A stretch of 63,982 bases of DNA, the filler included, from Limisphaerales bacterium (GTDB lineage: Bacteria; Verrucomicrobiota; Verrucomicrobiia; Limisphaerales; SIBE01): assembly GCA_044225505.1 (NCBI GenBank). It is 3 parts of 3 records of this genome, joined end to end, with 100 filler letters (N's around TTAATTAATTAA, not from the genome) between each part and the next. Parts side by side here need not be neighbours in the genome. Positions count along the whole stretch, not along the records: positions 25,857 to 49,428 come from JBGAIN010000132.1; 2 more parts are not named here. One strand, written 5' to 3'. Position 1 is the first letter of the stretch; every line of letters starts with the position of its first letter. This document shows, in pieces, positions 5,568 to 62,541 of the stretch. The notes below the pieces were generated by a model. That model had not been told where the DNA came from and did not search any database. It was given only the letters and a program-made list of their open reading frames with translations. The position numbers and the translations under genes were made by a program.

Positions 5568-5808
5568 TGACGCAGGCGTTCGTAGCCGCCGAGGTCAGGA
5601 GCGGACGTCGGGAGATGCCGAGGAATCCGCTTCCTCACGTCAGCGGCTACAGGATGAGTTGCACCAGCTCAACGGCGATCTTGATTGGATCGTCATAAAG
5701 TGTCTCGAGAAGGATCGACAACGTCGCTAGGACACCGCCAACACTCTTTTTTGGGGATTGATCCTTCGTCCGCGGGAGGAAGACCTGTCGGACACTCGGC
5801 CCGAACTT
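5568..5808 (+). repeat. Direct repeat copy 1: Ser/Thr kinase relic containing a GTAG-type palindrome
   Basis: Matches 6185-6412 except for a 13-nt indel (AGGAGCGGACGTC) and one substitution. Encodes ...[22 protein letters not shown]. Confidence 0.9.
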
Positions 5809-6184: not shown

Positions 6185-6412
6185 TGACGCAGGCGTTCGT
6201 AGCCGCCGAGGTCGGGAGATGCCGAGGAATCCGCTTCCTCACGTCAGCGGCTACAGGATGAGTTGCACCAGCTCAAAGGCGATCTTGATTGGATCGTCAT
6301 AAAGTGTCTCGAGAAGGATCGACAACGTCGCTAGGACACCGCCAACACTCTTTTTTGGGGATTGATCCTTCGTCCGCGGGAGGAAGACCTGTCGGACACT
6401 CGGCCCGAACTT
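6185..6412 (+). repeat. Direct repeat copy 2: Ser/Thr kinase relic containing a GTAG-type palindrome
   Basis: Preceded by the kinase motif IREKEPVRPSRRL; the palindrome spans 6199-6254. Confidence 0.9.
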
Positions 6413-25756: not shown

Positions 25757-25856
25757 NNNNNNNNNNNNNNNNNNNNNNNNNNNNNNNNNNNNNNNNNNNN
25801 TTAATTAATTAANNNNNNNNNNNNNNNNNNNNNNNNNNNNNNNNNNNNNNNNNNNN
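25757..25856. other. Scaffold gap with six-frame stop linker
   Basis: Ns flanking TTAATTAATTAA. Confidence 0.98.
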
Positions 25857-36305: not shown

Positions 36306-37439
36306 GTGAAGAACATGAGCGCAGGCAGTAGCACCGGGACGGATTTTGGATCTGGGTATCTGGAAATTTCCGAAAAGGGGTTTGGTTTCTTGCGATCGAA
36401 GGACAACCATTTTCAACCGAAACCGACCGACATTTTCGTCACGCCTGACACGATCAAGAAGAACTTTCTCCGCGAAGGTTGTCTGGTTGGCGGCCCGACT
36501 CAACCTCCGCACCGAGGCACGAGCCCGCAACTGCGTGAAGTTGAGATGGTGAATGAAATGCCCTTTTCGCAGTACACCAAAGCCGTCCGTTTTGAAAACC
36601 TCACAACCATTGATCCGTTCGAGAAATTTGCTCTGGAAACAACGCCGGAACTAATCGAAACCCGGATTATCGATTTAGTCACTCCGATCGGCAAGGGAAC
36701 ACGTGGCTTGATCGTCGCCCCTCCGCGAACGGGCAAGACGACGATTTTAAAGCAGATCGCTAATGCGGTAACAGCGAATCATCCAGAAGTTCATGTGATG
36801 GTGTTGCTGATTGATGAACGTCCGGAGGAGGTCACAGATTTTCAGCGGTCCGTAAAAGCCGAAGTGGTTGCTTCTTCGAACGATCAGGATTTGGAGACGC
36901 ACGTGCGCCTTTCCCGGTTCATGATCGAACGTTGCCGACGCATGGTCGAGTCCGGCCGAGATGTCTTTGTCCTGCTCGATTCGATTACACGCGTCGCCCG
37001 GGCTTACAACAGTGTGCATGGCGGCAGCGGAAGGACTATGACGGGCGGCGTCGACGCGCGTGCTTTGGAGATTCCTCGTAAGATGTTCGCTTCGGCTCGA
37101 AAAATCGAGGAAGGAGGGTCCCTGACGATCATTGCGACAGCCTTGGTCGATACGGGTTCGCGAATGGACGAATTGATTTTCCAGGAGTTTAAAGGAACGG
37201 GAAATATGGAGTTGATCCTGGAGCGTAAACTAGCCGACCGGAGACTCTTTCCTTCCATTGATATTCCGAAGAGTGGGACTCGGAAAGAAGAGAAGCTGTT
37301 TGCAGGCAAACATCTCGAAGCCATTCGGAAATTGCGTCGAACGATGGTGGATCTGAACCCCGTGGAAGCGATGGAGACACTGATCGCCGCGCTGAAGAAG
37401 CACAAAACGAACGACGAACTGCTCTCGAAGCTCGTCTAG
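36306..37439 (+). CDS. rho: Transcription termination factor Rho (short form)
   Basis: GFGFLR, APPRTGKT, LIDERPEEVTD, LDSITR, FKGTGNME, SGTRKEE. Confidence 0.96.
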   Translation: MKNMSAGSSTGTDFGSGYLEISEKGFGFLRSKDNHFQPKPTDIFVTPDTIKKNFLREGCLVGGPTQPPHRGTSPQLREVEMVNEMPFSQYTKAVRFENLTTIDPFEKFALETTPELIETRIIDLVTPIGKGTRGLIVAPPRTGKTTILKQIANAVTANHPEVHVMVLLIDERPEEVTDFQRSVKAEVVASSNDQDLETHVRLSRFMIERCRRMVESGRDVFVLLDSITRVARAYNSVHGGSGRTMTGGVDARALEIPRKMFASARKIEEGGSLTIIATALVDTGSRMDELIFQEFKGTGNMELILERKLADRRLFPSIDIPKSGTRKEEKLFAGKHLEAIRKLRRTMVDLNPVEAMETLIAALKKHKTNDELLSKLV

Positions 37440-37536: not shown

Positions 37537-38553
37537 ATGCCTCCCAAAGCACCGCCGGATCGACTCTCTCGCCCCCCTGTTGAGCGGATGCTCCGCATCC
37601 ATCAAGCGATCCAAGCAGGAACGTTTCCGACCGCCACTCGCCTTGCTCGCGAACTGGAAGTTTCTGCCAAATCGATCTACCGCGACCTCGAGTTTATGCG
37701 GGATCGACTTGAGTTGCCATTGGAGTACGACAGCAAACGGGGTGGGTTCACTTATACCGAAGAAGTCAGTTCGTTTCCCACGCTGCAAATTACGGAAGGC
37801 GAGCTGGTTGCTCTGCTCATCGCAGAAAAGGCTCTCCAGCAATACCGCGGAACTTCGTTCGAAAGGCCGCTGGTGAGCGCGTTCCGGAAGATGGCGGCCT
37901 CGCTTCCTGAGACCATCTCGTTGAATCTCGAAGATTGGGAACAAACGATTTCCTTCCGAACCAGTGCCGAGTCGATCTTGGATTTGAGCGTGTTCGACAC
38001 GCTTGCCAAAGCCACTGCCCAACGACAACAGCTGCTCCTGACTTACCGAAAACCGTCGCGCCAGGACGCGGAGGAACGTAAAGTGGATCCTTACCATTTG
38101 GCCAACATCAACGGCGAATGGTTTCTGTTTGCCTATTGCCACTTGAGGAAAGACGTCCGCACGTTTGTCCCAAGCCGCATTCAAGCGATCGCTCCGACCG
38201 GGGAAAAATTCATGCGCCCTGAAGGATTCTCCTTAAAACGTCGGCTCCGCGACAGTTTTGGGGTCCATTCGGGCCAAGGCCAATTTGACATCCGGCTGCG
38301 ATTCGCCGAGACAGTCGCTGATTATATTCGAGAGAAGAAGTGGCACCCCTCGCAAAGTCTGCAGGAGTTCCCGGACGGTAGCTTAGAGCTTTCACTCAGA
38401 CTCTCCAGTCTGGTGGAGATTCAAAGATGGGTTCTGGGATGGGGCGGGTTTGCGACGGTCTTGCATCCCCCTGAACTAGCGGCCGCTGTCGCGGAGGCGG
38501 CGCGACGCATTCTGGACGGGAGTCAAATGACGGCAAAGCGGTCAATAGACTAA
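37537..38553 (+). CDS. HTH-WYL-WCX transcriptional regulator (PafB/PafC-like)
   Basis: LARELEVSAKSIYRDLEFM (wHTH), RKVDPYHL, GEWFLFAYC, RTFVPSRI, WHPSQ, VLHPPEL. Confidence 0.92.
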   Translation: MPPKAPPDRLSRPPVERMLRIHQAIQAGTFPTATRLARELEVSAKSIYRDLEFMRDRLELPLEYDSKRGGFTYTEEVSSFPTLQITEGELVALLIAEKALQQYRGTSFERPLVSAFRKMAASLPETISLNLEDWEQTISFRTSAESILDLSVFDTLAKATAQRQQLLLTYRKPSRQDAEERKVDPYHLANINGEWFLFAYCHLRKDVRTFVPSRIQAIAPTGEKFMRPEGFSLKRRLRDSFGVHSGQGQFDIRLRFAETVADYIREKKWHPSQSLQEFPDGSLELSLRLSSLVEIQRWVLGWGGFATVLHPPELAAAVAEAARRILDGSQMTAKRSID

Positions 38554-38610
38554 GCCGGGGGTTTCCATCGCCGACATTTGCAAAAGTTTCGTCGCGAGTT
38601 AACTTCCTCC

Positions 38611-40323
38611 ATGGCCGAGCCGAAAAAGAAGTCGATACCAACCGCGGGCATCAACAAAAGTTCGGTTGGTGCATCGGATAGCCAGTCGCCTTTGAGCGAC
38701 CTCCTTTCGCGTGAAGAGTTGGATACCCTCTCCACGCTGCAACTGGTCGATTTAATCGTCAGTAAATTACCTCCGAGACACCCCTCGATCCTCGACATCG
38801 TCTACCTGCGCGAACGCATCGCAAGCATGGAAGAGATGAATTTCCAAGCCCAGGAAGCACTGTCCAAACTAGACGCGATTGTCGAAAAACTGCGCTCTCC
38901 CGCATTTCGAGTCGGCACGTTTATCATGCCAGTGGAGCCGGATAAGGCTCATGTTTGCACTGGCGGCAGCGACTATGTCTGCCGAGTCGATCCGCAGATT
39001 CCGTTATCGAGCCTTCAAGTCGGCCAGCGAGTGTTGTGCAACGAAGCGTTTGCTGTCGTGCAAGCACTGGGCTTTGACCGGAATGGCCCTATCGTCCGTA
39101 TCGATGAACTGCTCTCAGACGGCCGGTTACGAATTGGGCAGGAGAGCGGGTTAATGTCACTCGTGCTGCTGCGGTCAGCGCTTCTTGCGAAGGAGAAACT
39201 CAAGCCGGGCTTGGAAGTGCGTTTAGACGTCAACCAACGGGTCGCTTTGGAAGTGGTGGGAATGGGCAAACGGGTAGACCGCTCATTAGAGACTGTTTCC
39301 CAACTACCTTGGTCATCGATCGGCGGGCAGGATGCCGCTGTTCAGGCGATTCGTGACACGATCGAGATGCCATTCTTGCACAAGGACCTTTTTAAGCGCT
39401 TTCAACACAATGTCCCGAAGGGGTTTCTGCTTTATGGGCCCCCCGGCTGTGGCAAGACCTTGTTAGGGAAAGCGACCGCCTACAATCTTCGTCAGCAGAT
39501 CAAGCACGAAACTGGGGTTGATCATCCGGAGTTCTTCCTTCATGTGAAGGGGCCGGAGATTTTGAACATGTGGGTCGGTGAATCTGAACGTCAGGTGCGC
39601 GATCTGTTCACTCAATGCCGAGAGCGCGCCAGCGATGGCGCCCTGGCCTTTCTTTTCATCGACGAAGCCGAGTCAATACTCGGAACCCGCCGCGCCGGGC
39701 GTCACCACAGCATTTTGAGCACGTTAGTTCCAATGTTCTGCACAGAAATGGACGGGATCGAACCCCTCCAAAACGTCGTTGTCATTCTTGCGTCCAACCG
39801 GGCGGACTTGATTGATCCGGCAATCCTTCGTCCAGGGCGTATCGATCGCAAAATCAAAGTAAATCGTCCCGACCGGGCAGGCGTACAGCGGATTTTTGAG
39901 ATTTATCTCCCGGATACCTTGCCTTTGGCCGAGCCCAAGGCGGAGTTGGCAGCGGCAGTCACGGAAGCGCAGTTTGCCCGGACGCCTGACAATCAGTTTC
40001 TCGAGGTCGTCTATCGCAGCGGGAAAAAGGATCTCCTCTACCGCGGGGACTTAGCCAGCGGAGCCATCATCGCCGCCATTGTGGAGCGAGGCAAGAGCCT
40101 AGCCATCAAGCGCTCAATTCAAACCCAACAAGAGACGGTGTTGACTCGCGACGATCTCATCCAAGCGATGCGCGCCGAGTTTTCGGAGAACGACTTGTTC
40201 CCGACCACTGATATCACCGAGGATTGGATGAAGTTGACCGATTTCGATCCGGACAACGTGATTCGACTTGGGCCAATTCGGCCGCGCAAGTCTGAGTCAG
40301 GTGGCGGAGGAGGCATCGTCTGA
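38611..40323 (+). CDS. arc: Proteasome-associated AAA ATPase ARC/Mpa
   Basis: Coiled coil ending LRSP, tandem OB region, GPPGCGKT, KGPEILNMWVGESE, FIDEAES, ASNRADLIDPAILRPGRID. Confidence 0.93.
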   Translation: MAEPKKKSIPTAGINKSSVGASDSQSPLSDLLSREELDTLSTLQLVDLIVSKLPPRHPSILDIVYLRERIASMEEMNFQAQEALSKLDAIVEKLRSPAFRVGTFIMPVEPDKAHVCTGGSDYVCRVDPQIPLSSLQVGQRVLCNEAFAVVQALGFDRNGPIVRIDELLSDGRLRIGQESGLMSLVLLRSALLAKEKLKPGLEVRLDVNQRVALEVVGMGKRVDRSLETVSQLPWSSIGGQDAAVQAIRDTIEMPFLHKDLFKRFQHNVPKGFLLYGPPGCGKTLLGKATAYNLRQQIKHETGVDHPEFFLHVKGPEILNMWVGESERQVRDLFTQCRERASDGALAFLFIDEAESILGTRRAGRHHSILSTLVPMFCTEMDGIEPLQNVVVILASNRADLIDPAILRPGRIDRKIKVNRPDRAGVQRIFEIYLPDTLPLAEPKAELAAAVTEAQFARTPDNQFLEVVYRSGKKDLLYRGDLASGAIIAAIVERGKSLAIKRSIQTQQETVLTRDDLIQAMRAEFSENDLFPTTDITEDWMKLTDFDPDNVIRLGPIRPRKSESGGGGGIV

Positions 40324-40408
40324 ATCGGAACTCGCACTCGATTTCAGGGGCGCCCTTTTCTCACCTCCAACATGCCTCGTCACTAGAGCTATCAAGCCAA
40401 CCCCATTA

Positions 40409-41944
40409 ATGCCGGGACCTCCTGTGATATCGCCGATTATCCAATTCGGACTCGAAACCGAGTTTGGAATATCACGTGACGGCAGCGATGATGTCGACGT
40501 CGTGGCCGAATCCATCGCACTCGTAAGGAGCGCCACGGAACCTGGCGTTTGGATGTGCTGGGATTATGACAGCGAGGATCCGCACGCGGATATGCGAGGA
40601 TTCCGCGTCAGTCAACTGCGTCAGGACTCGGACGAATCCAACTATTTCGCCCAGGATGCGGAGCGCGAATTGAGCTTTGTGGAAATCAAAAGCGACCTCG
40701 TTTTGGGGAACGGAGCACGCTTCTACAATGACCATGCGCACCCAGAGTATTGCACTCCGGAATGTCATTCGGCGCACGATTTGGTTTTGCACGACCGTGC
40801 GGGTGAACGGATTCTGATGGCCTGCGCGCAGCATCTTTCCGAACAACGCCAAACCAAGGTTCGAATTTACAAGAACAACACCGACTTCTTCGGACACAGT
40901 TACGGATGCCACGAAAACTACCTTTTGCCACGATCGCTGCCTTGGGAGCCGCTAGCTCAAGGAATGCAGGCATTCCTGATCACTCGCCAAATCGTGGCTG
41001 GAGCTGGGAAGTTCGCGATCGAATCAGAAGACAAATTTGTTTCGGAAGGGTTTCAACTTTCACAGCGAAGCGACTTTTTCAGCGAATTGCAGAGCGTCGA
41101 CACGATGCAGCGTCGGCCGATTATAAATACACGGGACGAACCGCACGCGAACCCGAAGTTATACAGGCGATTTCACGTTATTTTGGGCGACGCGAACATG
41201 TCGCCGTTCGCCACATGGTTGAAAGTCGGCACGACGGCATTGACTTTGGAAGCGCTCGTGCGAGACCCAAAGCGGGTCCTCCCGAAAGTGGCTGACCCGC
41301 TCCTCGCGTTACAGGAGATTTCTCGGGACGTAAAGTTCCGCTGGAACGTGAAATTGGATGGCGATGTTAACACGACGGCTTTAGCAATCCAGCGCACTTA
41401 CCTGCAAGCAGTCCGCGAGCTCTGTGACTTAAGCAATGTTGAAAAAGCGCAACTCGTTCAAGAGTGGGAAACGGTTTTAAACGATCTTGAGACGGATTAC
41501 CTGCGATGTCGGGATCGCTTGGATTGGGTAGCAAAGTTAGCGTTGATTCGCGAATTCCAGGAAGCACAGAACTTGTCGCACGATGATCCATGGCTACGCA
41601 GTTTTGACTTGGAGTACCATCGGCTGGATTTTACAGAAGGCTTATATTATGGCTTGGAGCAGTCCGGGGTGATGCGCGGCGTGCCAAGCGAAGCAGCGGT
41701 TCGGGACGCCATTAAGCACCCTCCAACCTCACGTGCCTATGTGCGTGGCAAGTGCATCCAAAAGTTTGCGAACTATGTTACTTCCGCCCAGTGGGATCAC
41801 ATCACCCTTCAAGGTAGCACAGGGCCGATTAAGATTTCTTTGCTAGATTTGTTCGCACCCGAGGAGATCGTGCGCTATGCTAAGATTATCAATGCCGCTC
41901 GTTCACCAGATGATTTGCGAACCCTGCCGAACGTGGCAACTTAA
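40409..41944 (+). CDS. dop: Dop-like deamidase/deconjugase
   Basis: GLETEFGI, Dop loop WDYDSEDPHADMRGF, NGARFYNDHAHPEY, YKNNTD, GCHENY, NTRDEPHA. Confidence 0.9.
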   Translation: MPGPPVISPIIQFGLETEFGISRDGSDDVDVVAESIALVRSATEPGVWMCWDYDSEDPHADMRGFRVSQLRQDSDESNYFAQDAERELSFVEIKSDLVLGNGARFYNDHAHPEYCTPECHSAHDLVLHDRAGERILMACAQHLSEQRQTKVRIYKNNTDFFGHSYGCHENYLLPRSLPWEPLAQGMQAFLITRQIVAGAGKFAIESEDKFVSEGFQLSQRSDFFSELQSVDTMQRRPIINTRDEPHANPKLYRRFHVILGDANMSPFATWLKVGTTALTLEALVRDPKRVLPKVADPLLALQEISRDVKFRWNVKLDGDVNTTALAIQRTYLQAVRELCDLSNVEKAQLVQEWETVLNDLETDYLRCRDRLDWVAKLALIREFQEAQNLSHDDPWLRSFDLEYHRLDFTEGLYYGLEQSGVMRGVPSEAAVRDAIKHPPTSRAYVRGKCIQKFANYVTSAQWDHITLQGSTGPIKISLLDLFAPEEIVRYAKIINAARSPDDLRTLPNVAT

Positions 41945-41957
41945 CACCGTAACCATT

Positions 41958-42128
41958 ATGCCAGACCAAGCTCAGAAGCAACGGCCGCTCACGCCGGGAC
42001 CAAGCGGTGGCGGAGATGGCCCATCCTCTCCCAAAGTCGATAAACCGAACGTCGAAGAGCTGATGAAGCGCATGCGTAAGGTCGATCCGGATCAAGCCAA
42101 ACGTTACCGGCAGCGCACCGGCCAATGA
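41958..42128 (+). CDS. ubact: Ubiquitin-like modifier UBact (Pup analog)
   Basis: 56 aa with a disordered N-terminus, ending YRQRTGQ (R[T/S]G[E/Q]); sits between dop and prcB. Confidence 0.92.
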   Translation: MPDQAQKQRPLTPGPSGGGDGPSSPKVDKPNVEELMKRMRKVDPDQAKRYRQRTGQ

Positions 42129-42927
42129 GCGCGTCGCCTAGGATCGCTGGGGACTTCATCTCACTGCTCGCTGACCAACGAATCGCTCCGTTGCGCCTCG
42201 ATACAAGCAACGCTCCGGTCCAGACTCAAGCAACCACCGTCTTCGCCTTTCATTTCGCCGAAGGGGTCTTAATGGCGGGTGACCGTCGCGCAACGGCTGG
42301 GAACGTCATCGTCACTGACCGGGTCGATAAGGTGATCGACATTGACGCTTCTTCAATCCTGGCCATCGCGGGTGTTCCAGCCACAGCGTTTGAGATGGCT
42401 CGCGTTTTGCAGACATCCTTCGAGTATTACCGACGCAGTCAGTTGCAGCCTCTTTCCTTGCCGGCCAAAGTGCGGGCCCTAGCGAGACTGCTGCGAGAGA
42501 ACTTGCCCATGACGATGCAAGGTGTGGGCGTGGTGATGCCGTTATTCGCGGGAGTTGATTATTCCGCCAACCCCGCCCAGGCTCAGATCTACTTTTATGA
42601 CCCGCTCGGCGCGCAGTTTCAGGCGGTCGGTTACGCCGCTTCCGGATCAGGTTCCGGAACGATTCGGAGCATCTTGAGTTTCCAAGAGCATTATGGCACT
42701 GCATCTTGAGTTTCCAAGAGCATTATGGCACTCCGCGCCCGACCGACATGACGCTCCAACAAGCGGTGCAGTTTGCTCTGCGTGTCCTGATGGTGGCTTC
42801 GGAATTTGATGCTGCCACTGGCGGTATCAATCCGGGAACACAAACGTTTGCCACGATCAAAGTGCTGCGTCCCAGTGGAGTTGAAACGCTCAGTTCCGGA
42901 CAACAGTCGGAGTTTTTGACCGCATGA
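42125..42927 (+). CDS. prcB: 20S proteasome beta subunit, frameshifted by a 32-bp tandem duplication
   Basis: Mature T1, D17 and K33 in exact register, and SGSG. Removing one copy of the duplication gives 771 nt (256 aa). Confidence 0.9.
42669..42732 (+). repeat. Perfect 32-bp tandem duplication inside prcB
   Basis: GCATCTTGAGTTTCCAAGAGCATTATGGCACT x2. Confidence 0.97.
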
Positions 42928-43658
42928 TTGAGGAACCGTATCGTTGGCTCGAGGCGATTGGGAATCGCCGCGAGTATGTTTATGAACAACTTAAAGGAGG
43001 TTCTCCTGTCTTCGCCGTCAGCCTCCCGGACGGAATCGTTTTGCTCGGTGTTGGGACCGGGAATTCCAAGGTATTTGAGCTGTTTGACCGTCATGCGTTG
43101 GCGGGTCTAGGGCATCCCGCAGACATTGAAAAGATCCGTCAAGCCGCGATCGATGCTGCACATACGGAGGCGTTTACTCGCGCGCCCGAAGACGTAAGCA
43201 TGCGGCGCTTGGTTGCATTCGGCTTGAGCCCTCAGTTGAAGACGAATTTTGAGCAAATTTTCAGCGCTCCTTTTCTTGTGGAGCTCATCCTGACGGAACT
43301 GGGTGCCACTCCCGATCATGACGTTCTTATGCGCCTGCATTTCGATGGAGGTTTCCAGCTCGGCGCGAAAGGAATTGCCATTGCAACAGGGAAACCCGAG
43401 TCTGAAATCGCGACTCACACTTGGCTAGAGAATGCCCTCGCAGGCAGAACGAATAGAAAAGAGGTCATCGATATCTTGCTCCAGGCGTGGTGGGGTTTGA
43501 TCGAAAACAAGCCTTTGGCGGAGGCAAGCGAAGACGAACGGCGCTCCGGCTGGAGAACCGGACTCGCTGGAAAAATCGTGGAAATTGGATGGCTAGCTCG
43601 AAACAGCGCGCGAGCCGTCCGCTTTGAACCGCTTTCCCTTGGAGAATTGGGACTTTGA
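42924..43658 (+). CDS. prcA: 20S proteasome alpha subunit
   Basis: RREYVYEQLKGGSPV, SKVFELFDR, DVSMRRL, F....PFLVEL; overlaps the prcB stop. Confidence 0.88.
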   Translation: MIEEPYRWLEAIGNRREYVYEQLKGGSPVFAVSLPDGIVLLGVGTGNSKVFELFDRHALAGLGHPADIEKIRQAAIDAAHTEAFTRAPEDVSMRRLVAFGLSPQLKTNFEQIFSAPFLVELILTELGATPDHDVLMRLHFDGGFQLGAKGIAIATGKPESEIATHTWLENALAGRTNRKEVIDILLQAWWGLIENKPLAEASEDERRSGWRTGLAGKIVEIGWLARNSARAVRFEPLSLGELGL

Positions 43659-43805
43659 TCAAAGGTTCGGGGCATTTCTTCGTCCTCACTTTATCCGCGT
43701 CCAACCTTGACCGGAAAAACCGCGCTCTTTATTCGACGGAGATCTGTCGAGAGACTAGATTGCATCCCTGGAGAGGCAACGGTAACTTGTACAAGCACTG
43801 ACCCT

Positions 43806-45206
43806 ATGAATCGGATTGTTGGTCTGGAAACCGAGTATGGCTGTTTGACAAATGATCCGTCGGGACCTCCCAGCGCCGTAGGCCGCGTTCGCAACTGGAT
43901 ATTTGATCGTGCGCGGTATGGGCTCCCGGACATGCATCAGCGCGATTGGGATGAGCCCGCGGGAAATGGAGGGTTTCTCTTCAACGGTGGTCGTGCCTAT
44001 GTGGACATGGGGCATTTAGAGTATTGCACCCCGGAATGTCTATCTCTGATTGACGTTTTGCGCTACGACCGCGCGGGCGATGCCATCCTTGTGCAAGCCG
44101 TGCGCGATCTGCGGCTCGCCGATCAAGTCAGCTTCATTCGCAACAACATTGACCACTATTCAGGCGCAACCTTTGGCTGTCATGAGAATTACCTCGTGCG
44201 CCGATCCGCGCCATTGACCGAAGCCAATGTATTGTCGCTATTAGCGTTTTTGACGCTGCGTCAGCTCTACGTCGGAGCCGGCCGCGTCGGGGCTACGCCC
44301 GGGGCAGAGCTGCGCGGTGACTTGGTCCGACCGGGAGCAGACAACCACTTTCAGATCAGCCAACGTGCGGACTACATCAATAACGACCTCTTTGAATGGG
44401 TGCAGTTTAATCGCGCCATTATCAATACACGAGACGAACCGCTCGCGGACGCGCGAAAGTATCGGAGGCTTCATCTTCTGCACGGAGATACCAGTGTTTT
44501 GCCAACGACGCTCTTGTTGAAGGTGGGAACCACCTCTCTAGTTCTGGACCTCCTCGAGATGGACCGCATGCCCAAGATGGTTTTAGCCGATGCGGTTCTT
44601 AGCTTCCGGGGGATGTCTCACCAACCTGACGGGCCTTGGTTGGTGACGCTGGCCGATGGCCGAGTCGAAAATGCCGTTGAACTTCTTTTCCAGTTTTATG
44701 AAGCGGCGCGCTATGAATTCAACGGACGCGACGAAGAGACGAGCACGCTGTTGGACGTCTGGCAAGAAACCCTAACCGCCTTGGGCAAGCAGCCGGAAGC
44801 CTTGGTCGGCAAGGTCGATTGGATTACCAAACGTTGGCTTTTCCAACAATTCATTGATCGAGAGAAGATTCCTTGGATTGACCCATGGCTACGATCTCAG
44901 GACCTCGAGTTTCACCATATCGATCCGGCCCGCAATCTCGGACTGGCGTTGGCGCAGACACCGCTGGCTTGGGAGATTTCACCAGCCTCGCAGACGGACG
45001 CCGCTCGGCTAGCTCCAACGAATACCCGCGCTCAGATCCGATCTCACATCATGCACCAGCTGAAACATCATCCGATTCGTTATTTTGTCGATTGGGAAGT
45101 GATTGATGCCGAGGGAATCAACTCCTTGAACCTTCTCAACCCCTTCGATTCCTCGCCATCTTCCGTAGAGAGCTGGTGTCGGCAGCTGAACAGCATCAAG
45201 AGCTAG
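43806..45206 (+). CDS. pafA: PafA-like modifier-protein ligase
   Basis: RIVGLETEYG, FLFNGGRAYVDMGHLEYCTPEC, GCHENY, NTRDEP; no Dop loop. Confidence 0.9.
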   Translation: MNRIVGLETEYGCLTNDPSGPPSAVGRVRNWIFDRARYGLPDMHQRDWDEPAGNGGFLFNGGRAYVDMGHLEYCTPECLSLIDVLRYDRAGDAILVQAVRDLRLADQVSFIRNNIDHYSGATFGCHENYLVRRSAPLTEANVLSLLAFLTLRQLYVGAGRVGATPGAELRGDLVRPGADNHFQISQRADYINNDLFEWVQFNRAIINTRDEPLADARKYRRLHLLHGDTSVLPTTLLLKVGTTSLVLDLLEMDRMPKMVLADAVLSFRGMSHQPDGPWLVTLADGRVENAVELLFQFYEAARYEFNGRDEETSTLLDVWQETLTALGKQPEALVGKVDWITKRWLFQQFIDREKIPWIDPWLRSQDLEFHHIDPARNLGLALAQTPLAWEISPASQTDAARLAPTNTRAQIRSHIMHQLKHHPIRYFVDWEVIDAEGINSLNLLNPFDSSPSSVESWCRQLNSIKS

Positions 45207-45352: not shown

Positions 45353-47344
45353 TCATTGGAAGGTCGGCGCTGTAACCGGTCGGAGTAGAAAACCCGCCCA
45401 ATTAAAGTTCCGATTGAAATAGTTCGTTAACTTCACGGCTATTTCGTTCCGACCTTTTCGCAATGGGATTGACACCCGTACTGCCTCGAAGCCGTTGAAC
45501 TTTTGCAACCCTTCATACACTCGGCTTCCGTTCACCCACAGCTCGATTGGATCATCGTGCGCAAGAATGAACGCCTCGGCTTTGTCGACCTCGGAGTCTA
45601 CGAAGCGTCGCGCGAGAAACGCATGTCCAGTCCCGCCTAACTCAGATTCCGGATCGATCCGGGTTCCATGGCGGGCCACGTAGGTCAAGTTCAACATTGG
45701 CCCCACAGTCCATTCCTTCATCCAGCCAGTAACGAACTTCTCTTTCACTAACGTGCAAACAAACTTCTGCCCGGCGTCCAGCTCACGAAGAGATGGCAAG
45801 ATGGCCAGCCCTTCACTGCCACGAGGTCCATTGGCTTCCGCTGGGATCGCCATCGGACCGAAGACATCCCATTCGACCGATTCCTGGCGTGCGCCGTCGT
45901 CGAGTGTCGTGTCGACCGGTGTGTCCTGATACCATACCGCAACGCTTTCTGGACTAAGACCGGCAAAGGCCCCCCATTCGAGTGCAAGCGACTTTTGAAA
46001 AGGATAGACATTCTCGAAGTGGTGGCGATACCGCCCCTCATCGTTCGCGTGGGCGACGGCATAAGGATGGTGTCCACCTTTCCCAAACCACGCAAACGTG
46101 AAATAGTCCTCGCCGTTGACGCCGTGAAGGAAGCTCGGGGATTCTCCTTCCCCGTCGAGAACGGCAAAATCCCCTCCCCCATGGTCGTGCCCGGTGCGAA
46201 AAAGCGTCATACCCAACCAATGTCCCCGACCGCGCAAATAAACCACCTGATGGAGTCGGTGTCCATCTGTCTGGTCAGTCCTCCGGTGGAGCGCGTGAAG
46301 ATAGCCCCAATCATTTCCGAACACTGGGACTTTTTCGAGGGTGATTTCGGCTGAAACAACGGCATCCTTTGTTCCCTCGTTGGCAATCCAAACTTCGCAG
46401 CGTTGCCGGAATGGCATAGGTAGGTAACAGCTGTGATCGCCTGGCCGATGCTGATAAAAAGATGCGCCTTGGAACGGGCCAAAGAACTCGGCAACAGGTG
46501 AGTTTATCGCAAACGAGCCAGCCTCGTCGTATCGAGTCAAGAGACGAAGCGTCGCGTTGGTGTTCCATTTGGCTCGCAATTCTCGGACAATTCCTGGCCC
46601 CATTGCGTTAACCAGTGCGACGCGCTCGCCCGGTCTGATGCGCCGCTCCGGCGAGGCTAAGACGGCGCGAGGCAAATCCGAGCTTGCAGCACTTCTTTGC
46701 TGCTGAGCCAATCCGACGTAAGAGAACACAAGGTTCGTACCGCGTTCTTCGCTAACCAGACGCGCGCCGTGGAATGTACGATCATGCAACCGATAATCCA
46801 TCTGACAAAACCAGAGCCAAAAGGTTGGCGTCTTCTGAACCACATCCACGCGCAGTCTCCGTTCAAATGGAACAGGCAAATAAAAGTTGAAAGCTCGATT
46901 ATGGACTGGGATCCAATTCAAAGGAGCCACAGGTAGTGGAAATTCGGCGGCCGCGTTCACCAATTGAACATCCGTTCCTCGAATGCTCGGTTCGGTTTCC
47001 CCATCGACGTAAAACTCCCAATCGAAAAACGGTTCCCCGCCAGCTCGAGTCGTCCAGATGTGCCTTAAGGAACCTTGCCCTTCGACATCGAGCAGAGTGT
47101 AGCGAAAACCTTTCCCGGTCCACAGGCCGCCATGTCGTTCGGGACTCTCGACAAAGCTGTTCTTGCCCGCTCGAAAATCCTGGATCACGAAGATGTCCGC
47201 CAAAGCCGTTTGTCGCACTTGTTCCAGGGACAACTCCGCGGATGCAAGCGGCGTGGGCCAGATTCTTAGAACCGCAGTCAGGAGGACTAACCCCAGCAAA
47301 AGTCGGCGCGATGACGGATTTCGGGTGGGTAATTCGTTTCTCAC
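45353..47344 (-). CDS. Secreted DUF2961 (GH172-like) protein
   Basis: GSLRHIWTT, CYLPMPF, GRGHWLG, GEDYF; signal peptide. Confidence 0.75.
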   Translation of the reverse strand: MRNELPTRNPSSRRLLLGLVLLTAVLRIWPTPLASAELSLEQVRQTALADIFVIQDFRAGKNSFVESPERHGGLWTGKGFRYTLLDVEGQGSLRHIWTTRAGGEPFFDWEFYVDGETEPSIRGTDVQLVNAAAEFPLPVAPLNWIPVHNRAFNFYLPVPFERRLRVDVVQKTPTFWLWFCQMDYRLHDRTFHGARLVSEERGTNLVFSYVGLAQQQRSAASSDLPRAVLASPERRIRPGERVALVNAMGPGIVRELRAKWNTNATLRLLTRYDEAGSFAINSPVAEFFGPFQGASFYQHRPGDHSCYLPMPFRQRCEVWIANEGTKDAVVSAEITLEKVPVFGNDWGYLHALHRRTDQTDGHRLHQVVYLRGRGHWLGMTLFRTGHDHGGGDFAVLDGEGESPSFLHGVNGEDYFTFAWFGKGGHHPYAVAHANDEGRYRHHFENVYPFQKSLALEWGAFAGLSPESVAVWYQDTPVDTTLDDGARQESVEWDVFGPMAIPAEANGPRGSEGLAILPSLRELDAGQKFVCTLVKEKFVTGWMKEWTVGPMLNLTYVARHGTRIDPESELGGTGHAFLARRFVDSEVDKAEAFILAHDDPIELWVNGSRVYEGLQKFNGFEAVRVSIPLRKGRNEIAVKLTNYFNRNFNWAGFLLRPVTAPTFQ

Positions 47345-49428: not shown

Positions 49429-49528
49429 NNNNNNNNNNNNNNNNNNNNNNNNNNNNNNNNNNNNNNNNNNNNTTAATTAATTAANNNNNNNNNNNNNNNN
49501 NNNNNNNNNNNNNNNNNNNNNNNNNNNN
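49429..49528. other. Scaffold gap with six-frame stop linker
   Basis: Ns flanking TTAATTAATTAA. Confidence 0.98.
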
Positions 49529-54611: not shown

Positions 54612-57600
54612 TCAGAATGCCCCATTGAGTCTCGATCTGTCTGCTTGATCGGCAGAGCCGACCGCAGTGCTCTCCGAGAGAACCGAAGGAGCGCTAATGG
54701 CCGTCGCGGTCGCCAGCGAGCGGTCGTCCGCGTCATTGCTTGCGCGAGCTGATCCAACGGGAGCATCCGACAAGCTCCAGTCGAGGTTAAGCCTTCCAAG
54801 CTCGGCGCGAATTACAGGCAAGTTCCAAGCGACGGTCTCGCCATCGTCCCTCGCGGCCAAGAGCCACTGACCATCCGCACTGAACTTCAACGCCTCGGAA
54901 CCTTTGATCGGCGCTGGATTTGGCGGAGAAAGCGTGGCCAATTCGCGACCCGTTGCGGTCTCGTAAAGGCGCACATGCGTTCGGTTGAGCGAAACGGCAA
55001 ACACTTCGCTGTCAGGCGAAAACGCGACGGGCGGAGCTGCACCGGGAACTTCCAATTCAATGGCTGGATAGGCACGGAACAGCGGCTCGAGGGAATAAAT
55101 CTGCACCGTGGTGCGGGTGGCGACCGAAAACCAACGGCTGTTCGGGCTGAGCTTGATCTGACTAAATGGTTCCACACTATAGATCAGCCGCCCGTGCCGC
55201 CGGTCCCATAGCTGAGGTTGCTCGTGATGCCGCATGGTTGCGATCCAGCGACCATCGTCGGTGAGACTCAAGGCGTGCGCAGTTTTCGCCCAGGTCTGCC
55301 GCGGTCGCTCGCCTTGGATATCAAGGAAGATCACGGCATCAGTCGCCGCGATGACAAGTGTCCGCCCGTCCCCAGCCAGAGTTCCAGTATTGATTTTTTC
55401 CCCTGGCTCACCTCGATAAACCTCCCTTCCGATGTGCCAGGATGCAGGCGGATTGGCCAGCACTTCCGGGCTAACGTCGTAACTGTTCACCCGATTGCCG
55501 TGGAAAGCTTCGAACGTGAAGAGCGTCCTGCTATCCGCGCTGAACTGAGCCCAAATGCCCTTGAGCCTGGCAATTTCCCGGCTGCGCGCAAGATCCCACA
55601 AGAAACAGTCGCCTTCGATGCCGGTCACTACCGAGACGCAGCCAACCACGGCCAAGCGTTGGTCCGAACTAATCCAAACCCCAAGTGTCTCACGAGTCCG
55701 CCCTGCCCATGCCACCGTCCGGTAGCCTGTCTGCCGCAGCAAAGTCGCAACGGATTCCGACGCGGGCCACTCGCGCAAGCCGATCAGGCGATCGCCGACG
55801 GAGCTAACAGCCGAGAGACCAAGCCGCGTTTCCCGCAACAACGCCCGGCCGGAAACCAAATCCCAAATGATGCTGGACTGATCCCACGCATAGCTCAGGA
55901 GCATGGAGCCGTCAGGAGTGAATTGAAGGCGGTCGACATAGGCCTGATGACCGTGCAATTCAAGCACGGCGCCGGTCACATGGGCACTTCCACGATTGGA
56001 CTCAACCCCTCGCAATGCCAACCGTCCGCGGTCGCCGGCCAAAGCCAGACGTCTTCCATCAGGTTGCCAGACGAGCTGTTTCGGCGGAAAATCCAAGGTA
56101 AATGAAGTCCGAGTGCGCCCAGACTCGGCATCCCAGATTTCGACGCTTCCCCCTGGGTCGGCAGGCAGAACGGCAATCTGACTGGAATCTGGAGAAAACG
56201 CCGCGGCCAGGGCTGGACGGCCTGGCTGCAATCGGCGCGCTTCGATAGTCTGGCGAAGCGGTTGCACAACCACCCCACTCGGGGTCAACAGAAGGACGGA
56301 ATGGCTGTCCGGAGACACCTCGATTCGGTCGACACCTTCTAAGCTTAGAACCGCTTCGTCAGAGCCCTCAGCTTCCCAGGCCCGGACCAGCCCCGCCCCA
56401 TGCTCCAAGTGCACAACGAGAAACTCTGCATTGGGTGTGAAGAGTGCCTGGTCCACCGTCGCGCCAGCCGGAATCTGGAAAGATCGAACAACCCGCTCCG
56501 ATGGGAACTCGCAGATGGAAAGTGCACCTGCGCCTGAGCTACGGACAAACCGCTCCAGCGGAGCGTCCCAACCGAGCAGATACAAGGATTGCTTCGAAAT
56601 CCAATTCGTCGGGACGGCGATATCCACGAGCGCGAGCTGGCCGATCGCTTCCTGCCGCAGCGCCAGAACCTGGGCCTGGCCGAGCTGCGTGCGCCTGCTC
56701 AATTGATGTAAGAGTGCTGCGCTGGCCACCCGGGCGCCAGGACCGCCAGCAAATCGGAGCGCCTTGGCTTCGCTCAGCCGAGACTTCCAAAGCTCCGTCT
56801 CTGCGCGATCACGTTCGCGCGTGGCCGTTTGACCGGCCGCCTCGGCCTTGGAGCGCGCTAACGCCTGGTCGTGCTCGGCGATCATGGCCCGGGCGCGGTC
56901 TGATCGAGCCTTGAACAGCGCCACGGTAGAGATTCCTAAGCCAATGATCAGCGCCGTGGTCACAGCCGCTCCAGCAGCGAAGACCAGCTTGTGCCGCTTC
57001 CAGGAGGTCTGAATTCGGTAAGCCGGACTGGGCGGGCGCGCGACAACGGGTTCATGGTTCAGGTACCGCTTGAGATCGGCCGCCACGCCGTTGGCCGTCT
57101 CGTATCGCCGGGCTCGGTCTTTCTCCAAACATTTCATCACAATCCAGTCCAAATCTCCGCGGAGAAGGCGAATCAAAGCCGCGGAATCGGCAGCACACGG
57201 GCTGGAAGTGCCGGCGTGTTCCCTGTTCCGCAAGGACGCCAGCTTAGTGCTTGGTCGGACTGGTGCTCGTTCGCAGATTATCTGGCGCATTCCGTCCACG
57301 CCAGAGGCCAACAGCTCGGTAGCATCAAATGGAGGCTTGCCCGTGAGCAGTTCATAAAGCAGCACTCCCAGACTGTAAATGTCGCTGCGCGTGTCCACAT
57401 CCAGGCCGCCTAATTGCGCCTGCTCCGGACTCATGTAAGCGGGCGTGCCGACGAACTGATTGAGTTGGGTGCAAACCGTGGCTTCGGTGAGCCGACCCTC
57501 GATCGCTTTGGCGATCCCGAAGTCAATCACCTTGGGAACCGCCACCCCGTCGTGAAGTGCCACCAGAATATTCGAAGGCTTGATATCGCGATGGATAATT

Positions 57601-58283
57601 CCTTTTTGATGGGCATGCTGAATCGCCTGGCAGACGCGAATGAAGAGATCCAAGCGTTCTCGGGTCGACAAGTGGTTCTGATCGCAATACTCGGTGATCC
57701 GGACGCCGCGCACCAGTTCCATCACAAAGTAAGGACGTCCGGTAACGCCGGCCTTCCATTCGGCCCGTCGTGTCGAGGGAGATTCGCCCGCTGGGAGTGA
57801 GTCATCCGGTTCCTGCGTATGGATCGTCCCCGCGTCCAGGACTTTCGCAATGTTGGGGTGGTCCATCAGCGCCAAGGCTTGCCGCTCGGCCTCAAAACGG
57901 GCGACCACCTGTTTGGTGTCCATGCCCAACTTGATGACCTTCAAAGCGACACGGCGGCGGATCGGCTCGGTCTGCTCCGCGATATAAACCACCCCGCAGC
58001 CGCCTTCACCAATCTTCTCCAGCAATCGAAATCGGCCAATCGTCTGCCCCAAAGCCTCCTCGTGGAGCCCGGGAGAACCAAGGTCCAATCTCTCATAAAG
58101 GGACTTACTTGCGTCGGCCATCAAGCTGCCGGAGTCCTCATGGGCGGCAAGCAAAGCCTCGAGACGCCGTTTCAAGAGCGTATCGTCACCGCATTCGCGG
58201 TCCAGAAACCTGGCGCGCTCGGCCCCCGTGAGTTCGGCCGCGCCCTGGAACAGAATCTCCTCGCGTGGCGGTAGTGGCGTCAT
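54612..58283 (-). CDS. Ser/Thr protein kinase with TM helix and WD40-like propellers
   Basis: GEGGCG, VALK, HRDIKPSN, DFG, SPE, GDLDWIVMK, TM segment, FSPD repeats; ATG 58283 just after the ECF gene. Confidence 0.93.
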   Translation of the reverse strand: MTPLPPREEILFQGAAELTGAERARFLDRECGDDTLLKRRLEALLAAHEDSGSLMADASKSLYERLDLGSPGLHEEALGQTIGRFRLLEKIGEGGCGVVYIAEQTEPIRRRVALKVIKLGMDTKQVVARFEAERQALALMDHPNIAKVLDAGTIHTQEPDDSLPAGESPSTRRAEWKAGVTGRPYFVMELVRGVRITEYCDQNHLSTRERLDLFIRVCQAIQHAHQKGIIHRDIKPSNILVALHDGVAVPKVIDFGIAKAIEGRLTEATVCTQLNQFVGTPAYMSPEQAQLGGLDVDTRSDIYSLGVLLYELLTGKPPFDATELLASGVDGMRQIICERAPVRPSTKLASLRNREHAGTSSPCAADSAALIRLLRGDLDWIVMKCLEKDRARRYETANGVAADLKRYLNHEPVVARPPSPAYRIQTSWKRHKLVFAAGAAVTTALIIGLGISTVALFKARSDRARAMIAEHDQALARSKAEAAGQTATRERDRAETELWKSRLSEAKALRFAGGPGARVASAALLHQLSRRTQLGQAQVLALRQEAIGQLALVDIAVPTNWISKQSLYLLGWDAPLERFVRSSGAGALSICEFPSERVVRSFQIPAGATVDQALFTPNAEFLVVHLEHGAGLVRAWEAEGSDEAVLSLEGVDRIEVSPDSHSVLLLTPSGVVVQPLRQTIEARRLQPGRPALAAAFSPDSSQIAVLPADPGGSVEIWDAESGRTRTSFTLDFPPKQLVWQPDGRRLALAGDRGRLALRGVESNRGSAHVTGAVLELHGHQAYVDRLQFTPDGSMLLSYAWDQSSIIWDLVSGRALLRETRLGLSAVSSVGDRLIGLREWPASESVATLLRQTGYRTVAWAGRTRETLGVWISSDQRLAVVGCVSVVTGIEGDCFLWDLARSREIARLKGIWAQFSADSRTLFTFEAFHGNRVNSYDVSPEVLANPPASWHIGREVYRGEPGEKINTGTLAGDGRTLVIAATDAVIFLDIQGERPRQTWAKTAHALSLTDDGRWIATMRHHEQPQLWDRRHGRLIYSVEPFSQIKLSPNSRWFSVATRTTVQIYSLEPLFRAYPAIELEVPGAAPPVAFSPDSEVFAVSLNRTHVRLYETATGRELATLSPPNPAPIKGSEALKFSADGQWLLAARDDGETVAWNLPVIRAELGRLNLDWSLSDAPVGSARASNDADDRSLATATAISAPSVLSESTAVGSADQADRSRLNGAF

Positions 58284-58288
58284 CCGAC

Positions 58289-58870
58289 CTACGGGCCGCC
58301 GGGCGACCCGACCTTCGCTCTCCCTGCGATCTCGACCTTCAGCCAGGACCGGGCGTAGCTCCACCACTGTTTCGCCGTGGGCACGGCGATGCCCAGCACT
58401 TCGGCTGCCTCCTCAAACTTAAGCCCGACGAAGTAGCGCAGCTTTACCAGCTCAGCTTTCCGGAAATCCACGGCCGCAAGTTTTTCGAGCGCGTCATGGA
58501 CTGCCAGCAACTGATCGTCCGCCGCAGGCGCGGGAATGTCCACCTCGTCTAAATCGCTCCGAGGCGCCCCGGCACCACGTTTCACAGCCTGACGACGACG
58601 AGCTCGATCCACGAGAATACACCGCATGGCCTCGGCAGCCGTGGCGAAGAAATGCTGGCGTCCTTGCCAGTCCGGTTGGTCCTTGCCTGCGATTCTGAGC
58701 CATGCCTCGTGGACCAGGGCAGTTGGCTGCAACGTGTGTTCCTGCGGTTCGTTGGATAAACGGCGCGCGGCCAAGTGGCGCAGTTCGTTATAGACCAGCG
58801 GTAACAATTCGGTCGCTGCTTTGCTGTCGCCCTCCGCGGCAGCCTGAAGCAATTGAGTCACCTCGTTCAT
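58289..58870 (-). CDS. ECF sigma factor (TIGR02999-like)
   Basis: VYNELR, TLQPTALVHEAWLR, LVKLRYF; paralog of 16996..17550. Confidence 0.93.
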   Translation of the reverse strand: MNEVTQLLQAAAEGDSKAATELLPLVYNELRHLAARRLSNEPQEHTLQPTALVHEAWLRIAGKDQPDWQGRQHFFATAAEAMRCILVDRARRRQAVKRGAGAPRSDLDEVDIPAPAADDQLLAVHDALEKLAAVDFRKAELVKLRYFVGLKFEEAAEVLGIAVPTAKQWWSYARSWLKVEIAGRAKVGSPGGP

Positions 58871-61845: not shown

Positions 61846-62120
61846 CTACAGAAGCGACAAAGCCGACGAAAAAGTATGTTCACGCCCGTCGACATATATT
61901 CCCGCCCGGAGCCGCAACCGTTTCCCGCCGGAGATTCGGCTGCCTGTGGCCGTGCTCTTTATGGCCGTCGCCACAACAGTGATGACTTCGCCCATCTTCG
62001 ATCTATTGATCCGGACGAGAGAGCCGCCGATTGCCGATGAGCCGAACGCTTCGATCGCCGTCGCTCCGAACTTCAATTCCCTCGCCAAAGTATGACTCAT
62101 GACGACGAGGCCATTCGGAC

Positions 62121-62163
62121 CAAGGCCGGTGCAAGGCCGGTGCAAGGCCGGTGCAAGGCCGGT
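62121..62163. repeat. 11-bp tandem repeat (CAAGGCCGGTG) x about 4
   Basis: Three full copies plus a 10-bp fourth copy. Confidence 0.95.
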
Positions 62164-62541
62164 CGCTGAGCGGCACTGCTCCGGGGTTGGTCCGGCAGAA
62201 CATCCCGTTTGCTGCGCTCCGACTTCCCGTCTCCCACGGCAATTCCCCCTTCGTTCTCAAGACATTCTTGTCCGCCACCTTGCATTTGAGATTGCGACCT
62301 TGCACGCCACCCCGAAAACAGCGACAACTCGCAAACCCAGGGAAATGTCTCACACTCTGTCCACAAATTGTTCTCGAAGTGTGCGACATTTGCCGTCTTC
62401 CCTTTCCAAACTTGATGTAAAAGTGGCAGGAGCGTTCACAGACGAGGTGCTCGCAGGTCCGTACGGTTAAAATTTGAGAAACAACGCTAAACAAATTCCC
62501 GGAACTGCCGATGAAGGTGAGGTGGTTTTTGACCGTTCCGT

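Follow-up and report, generated by a model that had tools for sequence, protein, structure and literature searches.

A UBact–proteasome operon in a Limisphaerales bacterium, with a presumed ligase and a docking interface that differ from those of the Pup system

The DNA considered here, hereafter the window, is a stretch of 63,982 nucleotides (filler included) from the genome of a Limisphaerales bacterium (assembly GCA_044225505.1), and it carries a cluster of six genes for the components of a UBact–proteasome system, comprising the small protein modifier UBact, two paralogues of the Pup-ligase family, a proteasomal ATPase and the two subunits of a 20S proteasome. The genes are arranged as arc-dop-ubact-prcB-prcA-ligase on the plus strand between 38611 and 45206 (table 1), which is the gene order of the actinobacterial Pup-proteasome locus. 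Consecutive genes are separated by 85, 13, −4, −4 and 147 bp from arc to the ligase gene, the second overlap being counted with prcB read to 42927; the last of these gaps, the 147 bp that separate prcA from the ligase gene (43659–43805), is replaced in many family members by an overlapping stop and start. The genome measures 9.04 Mb, with a GC content of 57% and a completeness of 95%, and its nearest relatives place it in the phylum Verrucomicrobiota and the order Limisphaerales/Pedosphaerales. An initial annotation of this DNA had described six co-oriented genes in this order in a non-actinobacterial host, and was right on both counts; the interval that it gave for the operon, however, takes in a seventh gene, encoding an HTH-WYL-WCX regulator. 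Three contigs (C226, C227 and C306) make up the window, joined by runs of N at 25757–25856 and 49429–49528, across which genes are not established as adjacent.

The modifier, a protein of 56 amino acids, belongs to the UBact family, as had been proposed: it scores 79.3 bits against the UBact model NF033388 (cut-off 35) and 79.7 bits against the UBact family PF20513 of Pfam (cut-off 27.8), and all of the UBact candidates gathered (511/511) are homologues. The Pup model PF05639, by comparison, matches nothing in the genome, while giving a positive result in a control genome. The RTGQ tail of the modifier, also correctly read at the outset and distinct from the GG[EQ] tail of Pup, fits the C-terminal pattern R[T/S]G[E/Q] that reportedly defines UBact, following Lehmann et al. 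in 2017. A survey of 80 related loci turned up 47 tags, 37 of them ending in RTGQ and 10 in RTGE, and loci with Glu-ending tags (L040, L060 and L061) retain Dop. The five larger proteins of the operon find their best matches in NCBIfam models of the actinobacterial type, yet all score below the cut-offs of those models. The profile searches that the initial annotation had suggested passed the cut-off for UBact, and returned matches below cut-off for Dop, PafA, ARC and PrcA.

The gene that follows arc encodes the first of the two Pup-ligase-family paralogues. Its product scores 436.3 bits against the Dop model TIGR03688 and 330.1 bits against the PafA model TIGR03686, the former being the best-scoring model even though its cut-off of 492.3 is not reached, and comparison with solved structures gives 331.9 bits for Dop and 223.7 bits for PafA. 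A Dop loop had been predicted in this protein and is indeed present, as a segment of 77 residues with a W-D-Y motif; the corresponding segment has 44 residues in the second paralogue and mostly about 33 in PafA-type proteins. The residues E16/E18, W51, D108-H109, H168, H256 and W462 are in place, and the six Dop residues that PMC8599861 names (W47, D94, H95, H155, H241 and W453) have counterparts here. On sequence comparison, the first paralogue would therefore not count as an actinobacterial-type Dop by score, yet appears Dop-like by its residues. Taken together with the Gln and Glu ends of the tags, the Dop-like scores, loop and residues would fit a deamidase that doubles as an eraser of the tag.

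Table 1. Features of the UBact–proteasome locus and its upstream neighbour, with positions counted along the whole window.
Feature	Coordinates	Strand	Matches and remarks
Neighbouring HTH-WYL-WCX regulator of transcription (338 aa; architecture resembling PafB/PafC)	37537..38553	+	PF13280, PF25583, HTH_11
Sigma-70-like promoter site, TTGCAA / 16 nt / TAACTT	38578..38605	+	Ends 5 nt before arc ATG
arc/mpa proteasomal AAA+ ATPase, 570 aa	38611..40323	+	PF17758, PF16450, PF00004, TIGR03689
Deamidase/de-conjugase of the Dop type, carrying a Dop loop (511 aa)	40409..41944	+	TIGR03688, PDB Dop match
UBact modifier, 56 aa, ends RTGQ	41958..42128	+	NF033388, PF20513
prcB, 20S beta subunit, frameshifted in assembly	42125..42927	+	PF00227; TIGR03690 on both pieces
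Exact 32-bp tandem duplication breaking prcB	42669..42732	+	Probable assembly artefact
prcA, divergent alpha subunit of the 20S particle (244 aa)	42924..43658	+	TIGR03691, PDB 1Q5Q
Presumed UBact ligase (PafA operon position), 466 aa	43806..45206	+	PF03136, PafA/Dop tie

The second paralogue, encoded at the end of the operon, is presumed to be the UBact ligase because the tag requires a ligase and the genome holds two Pup-ligase-family genes only; two such genes are also present in each of 5/5 genomes in which the locus is split. The protein retains E8, E10, R63, D67, E72, H126, R209 and H223, has neither Dop loop nor Dop His, and carries the PafA-type residues F33, F57 and D429, which correspond to positions 4, 7 and 46 of Hecht Table 1 (PMC7947786). 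Most family members have a ligase of 88–94% identity, the same clade is found in proteins labelled Gemmatimonadota, and the AlphaFold single-chain model has a predicted local distance difference test (pLDDT) score of 93.3.

Several features weigh against an identification of this protein as a PafA of the familiar kind. The PafA model TIGR03686 and the Dop model are tied at 273.9 and 273.7 bits, and the curated cut-offs of both (551.3 and 492.3, respectively) are missed; the sequence is slightly nearer to Dop (214 bits, versus 200 for PafA), as is the fold (Z 45.5 for Dop and 42.2 for PafA). There is no LxVGS insertion by the catalytic Asp, V66 and P76 are of the Dop type, and the alpha-loop is unlike that of PafA or Dop and lacks the two Thr that are required for full PafA speed (PMC7947786). 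This loop, the equivalent of which contacts substrates in PafA (bioRxiv 10.64898/2026.04.10.717840), is nearly invariant among close relatives of the ligase; its shape in the AlphaFold model was considered as a Dop-like sign and discarded, as a PafA control that passes its cut-off shows the same strand and loop. Residues 39–56 (about 43920–43973) include a conserved, clade-specific insertion of ~11 residues with an Arg-Asp-aromatic motif, which occupies the place of the Dop loop and is possibly its remnant. The initial annotation had called this gene pafA. Its position in the operon and the lack of a Dop loop agree with that name, whereas the tied scores, the separate clade and the distinct alpha-loop do not, and the diagnostic motifs cited for the six genes hold for Dop, ARC and prcB rather than for the ligase.

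Phylogenetic trees were built with FastTree (138 rows) and IQ-TREE (37 rows, of which 36 were picked from the 138 by motif group and one was a shorter Dop), in both cases with no outgroup. Four groups are well supported: UBact ligases, UBact Dops, PafA-type proteins and Dop-type proteins; the curated cut-offs are passed by 7/9 PafA-type and 9/10 Dop-type rows, the taxonomy of which is mostly unverified. Within the unrooted 37-row tree, the UBact ligases join the PafA-type branch with a support of 71/60 and in 706 of 1000 bootstrap trees, and the remaining placement, with the UBact Dops (294/1000), counts against PafA kinship. Orthology of the ligase to PafA is thus weakly favoured by these trees. 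A further ~50 representatives of the Pup-ligase family (P0121–P0270) match the motifs of neither Dop nor PafA and make up additional deep clades.

Given this mixture of Dop and PafA features, the ligase might instead have evolved separately, to conjugate UBact-Gln directly by transamidation or to work only together with Dop, leaving Dop mainly as an eraser. The ~11-residue insertion and the 294 trees that group the ligase with UBact Dops are in keeping with such an origin, as are a Dop-to-ligase mutant that used Pup-Gln directly (PMC7947786) and the heterodimer of paralogues proposed by Iyer in 2008 (PMC2588565). The mutant kept the full Dop loop, however, and this ligase has none; moreover, natural Glu-ending tags accompany the same ligase clade and kinship with PafA recurs in the majority of the bootstrap trees. 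We regard this separate route as unlikely.

Binding of the tag to the ligase was addressed by modelling. The ligase–UBact complex scores 0.85, compared with 0.00 for the best of 3 controls, and passes a mark that is met by 116/157 solved pairs and by 2/215 mismatched pairs; agreement of contacts between runs is at least 52% and the partner pLDDT is at least 52. Residues 42–56 of UBact are predicted to contact E10, D67–H70 and H126 of the ligase. The pass may stem from likeness to solved complexes of Pup with PafA or Dop; since binding of UBact would also be anticipated for Dop, the result stops short of demonstrating ligation.

The proteasome core presents a different difficulty, for the operon had been described as complete and, as written in the assembly, it is not: prcB is shifted by an exact tandem duplication that the initial annotation had overlooked. 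The prcB frame stops at 42709 after 194 amino acids and the C-terminal remainder continues in a different frame as far as 42927, with TIGR03690 matching both pieces; with a single copy of the repeat, the gene would encode 256 amino acids. The beta subunit begins with a propeptide of 36 amino acids, followed by the catalytic residues Thr37, Asp53 and Lys69, which in the usual numbering of 20S beta subunits are Thr1, Asp17 and Lys33. Contigs from two sequencing runs, X1 (the possible source of the assembly) and X6 (from another study), lack exactly these 32 bases and cover at least 255 letters on either side; the contig of run X5 is broken at the repeat, and the RNA run X15 has no coverage there. 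A prcB match was found in 23 of the 40 relatives searched, and none of the 23 has an internal stop. Because the X1 and X6 contigs hold one copy and the matching relatives are free of stops, the frameshift is probably an assembly artefact.

Contigs drop rare variants, so that a minority strain might carry the duplication, which tells against an artefact. Were the duplication genuine, the strain would have lost its proteasome core: the repeat lies inside contig C227 rather than at a scaffold gap, conservation of prcA is weaker than that of the rest of the operon, and removal of one copy from 12 other exact duplications (25–139 bp) mostly gives no clear rescue of a frame. The single copy in contigs of X1 and X6, the unbroken prcB match in 23/23 matching relatives and the intact state of the remaining five operon genes make this highly improbable, and a true prcB pseudogene was disfavoured on the basis of the same contigs and relatives. 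Across the genome, 59 exact tandem duplications are listed with no excess at any one length, and among the 13 tested by removing one copy a clearly longer open frame appeared only for prcB and two others; a general assembler fault as the mechanism that produced the artefact is not supported by these other duplications. Frameshifts also occur in copies of relatives, affecting prcA and the ligase gene in L025 (9621–11889), prcB in L089, and arc and dop in L129, and are probably sequencing errors. The prcB frameshift is a warning that calls of broken genes in such assemblies require the support of reads.

The beta subunit has a further peculiarity, in that the residue before its catalytic Thr (42230–42235) is Ala, as it is in 47/47 related beta subunits; a few other beta subunits have Ser or Gly at this position. 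The usual residue at this point in proteasomes is Gly, and the Ala may influence self-processing.

The ATPase and the alpha subunit are the components that would have to meet for a tagged protein to be degraded. ARC consists of two OB domains and an AAA domain, scores 420.8 bits against TIGR03689 (cut-off 504.75), has a proteasome-associated ATPase as its best match in the PDB (E 1e-95), and retains intact Walker A (276) and Walker B (349) motifs. The alpha subunit PrcA is more diverged, scoring 53.8 bits against TIGR03691 (cut-off 139.05) and matching the PDB alpha subunit 1Q5Q with an E of 2.6e-6. Activators of the mycobacterial proteasome end in GQYL, the Tyr of which contacts Arg26 of PrcA while the terminal carboxylate binds Lys52, and the Tyr–Arg26 contact is required for degradation driven by PafE (bioRxiv 249060); the C-terminal GQYL docking motif of Mpa/ARC has also been described (PMC8223512). 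The present ARC, by contrast, ends in GGIV, with no GQYL/HbYX docking motif, and a penultimate Tyr occurs in none of 22 complete ARC tails from the 80 loci (0/19 in an overlapping set), which weighs against proteasomal docking. On the side of the alpha subunit, the equivalent of Lys52 is invariant in 51 of 51 distinct segments and none of the 51 has Arg or Lys at the Arg26 position, although the position immediately preceding it is basic in 47; the register for both positions is taken from a single alignment. The paired absence of the ARC Tyr and the alpha Arg suggests that the docking contact has been changed more than lost.

These observations could also mean that UBact tagging is real without being mainly a signal for the proteasome, ARC unfolding or remodelling the tagged proteins and not docking to a 20S particle. 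The missing Tyr of the ARC tails and the missing Arg of the alpha subunits, the partners of a contact needed in mycobacteria (bioRxiv 249060), are what would be seen in that case, and arc-dop frequently lies apart from ubact-prcB-prcA-ligase. The carboxylate-binding Lys and the neighbouring basic residue are retained, though, the ARC tails keep a conserved length and hydrophobic last residues, ubact and prcB overlap by 4 bases, and no alternative activator of the Bpa family was matched in the genome, in a search that lacked a positive control and is correspondingly weak. We consider a system uncoupled from the proteasome very unlikely. A PAC2 match is likewise absent from the 95%-complete genome.

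Bringing these parts together, we think it likely that UBact is deamidated by Dop, ligated to lysines by the second paralogue with ATP and degraded with its substrates by ARC and the 20S proteasome, Dop also recycling the tag. This scheme builds on the genes, their order, families, catalytic residues and conservation as observed here, and on the modelled binding between tag and ligase. UBact would be synthesized with a C-terminal Gln, from an operon whose transcription probably begins at a promoter immediately upstream of arc, and the Dop paralogue would convert this Gln to Glu and also remove the tag from its targets. The second paralogue would then use ATP to phosphorylate the gamma-carboxylate of the Glu, which would be joined to lysines of the substrate. 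ARC would bind the tagged protein, unfold it and thread it into the PrcA/PrcB particle, the C-terminal carboxylate of ARC docking on the conserved alpha Lys without the Tyr–Arg contact of mycobacteria. All four chemical and physical steps are carried over by homology to pupylation. Deamidation before ligation had been proposed in the initial annotation and is still the best inference from the Dop loop and residues, the Gln-ending tags and the presence of two family genes; its less secure element is the identity of the ligase. A bolder proposal, which we hold less likely than not, is that UBact represents a parallel form of pupylation, in which the ligase arose from a Dop-like ancestor independently of actinobacterial PafA, has its own substrate-recognition loop and perhaps uses the Gln-ended tag directly, and in which ATPase and 20S ring have jointly exchanged the Tyr–Arg docking contact for a way of opening the gate without a tyrosine.

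The regulator gene upstream lies on the same strand as arc, 57 bp before it, and is the single WYL match in the whole genome. Its product shares the HTH-WYL-WCX architecture of the PafBC/DriD-type WYL regulators, and its best PDB match is PafBC (6SJ9, E 3e-13), a weak similarity at the level of the family. In actinobacteria, PafBC lie within the proteasome locus and control the DNA-damage response (PMC8223512), which makes the WYL neighbour worth testing. Here, in contrast to PafBC, there is one gene, placed upstream of arc rather than after pafA, and it occurs across the order regardless of proteasome genes: an orthologue of at least 56% identity is present in 37/41 genomes, including 14 of the 17 that have no prcB match. 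Of 30 loci, the present genome included, 24 have the gene next to rho and 12 have it next to arc, and a member of the same genus (G002, 96% complete) has the operon with only a 41% WYL paralogue. The link between the WYL gene and the proteasome is local and not obligate, and a role as dedicated regulator of the operon was rejected, as far as an obligate link is concerned, on the strength of the orthologues in genomes without a prcB match and of the frequent position beside rho. The copy of Rho directly before the WYL gene is short (377 amino acids, 36306–37439), and a second Rho, of 52% identity, is encoded on contig C74.

That the WYL protein is nonetheless a PafBC counterpart, tying the operon to the DNA-damage response, is an idea compatible with the scheme of tagging and degradation set out above. 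It draws on the strand and spacing of the gene, on the 12 loci in which it adjoins arc, on PafBC being the closest solved relatives, and on the place of pafBC in the actinobacterial locus (PMC8223512). It is made unlikely by the breadth of the orthologues, the more frequent neighbourhood of rho, the case of G002 and the weakness of the similarity, and also by a promoter-like site before arc that is present with or without the WYL gene. This site, ending 4–8 nt before an in-frame arc ATG, recurs in 26 of the 35 upstream regions that are distinct, compared with 0.2% of shuffles; as the pattern was drawn from these same sequences, its recurrence speaks for conservation only and leaves function aside. 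Such a site suggests transcription without a leader, starting at arc and independent of the genes upstream. A generic scan for promoters and terminators gave nothing useful on the plus strand and did not pick up the arc site. A promoter-like site before the ligase gene (43760–43788), which resembles the one before arc, was set aside, a looser form of its pattern being found in only 2/87 ligase upstream regions of relatives. Short contigs of the RNA run X15 cover the WYL gene, arc, ubact-prcB and the ligase gene at a depth of 2.5–4.4; carry-over of DNA is possible, and they are not taken as evidence of expression.

Within the family to which this genome belongs, prcB is matched in 12/12 genomes, and in the rest of the order it is matched in 11 of a further 28; in a sample of 301 genomes from the phylum, UBact occurs in 10, the present one among them. 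The six-gene order is kept in most relatives, with split forms frequent and arc-dop often separate from ubact-prcB-prcA-ligase. Clustering of 3798 ORFs (open reading frames) from 87 loci brought out no additional gene associated with the operon. Nearly all of the 80 loci that match the ligase best bear Verrucomicrobiota titles, Limisphaerales or Pedosphaera in several cases, and a few have other or uninformative labels. Sequencing runs that contain this DNA come, where the habitat is named, from activated-sludge, bioreactor, wastewater and biofilm metagenomes. Elsewhere in the window, a DUF2961 protein of 663 amino acids (45353–47344, minus strand) is convergent with the end of the operon and has no orthologue beside the operons of relatives. 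Contig C226 holds a 208-bp repeat of 98.6% identity (5601–5808 and 6205–6412). On the minus strand of contig C306 are genes for a Ser/Thr kinase fused to WD40 propellers (1251 amino acids, 54612–58367) and an RCC1-repeat and Ig protein (857 amino acids, 59272–61845), and a short element at 62111–62223 has similar copies on about ten other contigs.

Lehmann, Udasin, Livneh and Ciechanover are said to have named UBact in 2017, in Gram-negative phyla. The present locus matches UBact loci of that description (for which NF033388 and PF20513 are the tag models) in passing the tag model, in its RTGQ end, in the set and order of its six genes and in its verrucomicrobial host, and differs from other verrucomicrobial copies only in its frameshift, probably introduced by the assembly, and in having rho and WYL as local neighbours. 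Earlier still, Iyer, Burroughs and Aravind described small modifiers ending in G[EQ], two PafA paralogues and proteasome genes in verrucomicrobia and nitrospirae (PMC2588565); they named such a modifier Pup, whereas the Pfam model of Pup finds no match in this genome. The locus is an ordinary member of a known system, predicted in verrucomicrobia in 2008 and named UBact in 2017. Compared with the actinobacterial Pup-proteasome, homologues of all five enzymes and subunits are present, with the Dop loop and catalytic residues kept, and the differences lie in the ligase, which forms a separate clade with a different alpha-loop, in the absence of GQYL from ARC and of an Arg26 equivalent from the alpha subunit, in the Ala before the beta catalytic Thr (47/47), and in the lack of a Bpa or PAC2 match. 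The remnant left on lysines by trypsin would be TGE (+287.11 Da), as opposed to GGE (+243.09 Da) for actinobacterial Pup. No experimental study of UBact was found in a literature search that covered few subscription papers, and the accessible portions of related papers make no mention of a distinct ligase clade or of tyrosine-free docking, which supplements or subscription papers may cover.

The value of the locus is as a test case for the UBact system. A mass of +287.11 Da on lysine can be searched for in existing metaproteomes of sludge or soil, and the ARC/alpha pair, which lacks the Tyr–Arg contact of mycobacterial activators, offers a handle for a first test. As the substrate loop of the ligase differs from that of PafA, the range of substrates is likely to be another one. 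If the differences in ligase and docking prove to be functional, UBact would represent a second way in which proteins are tagged in the style of Pup and a 20S proteasome is opened.

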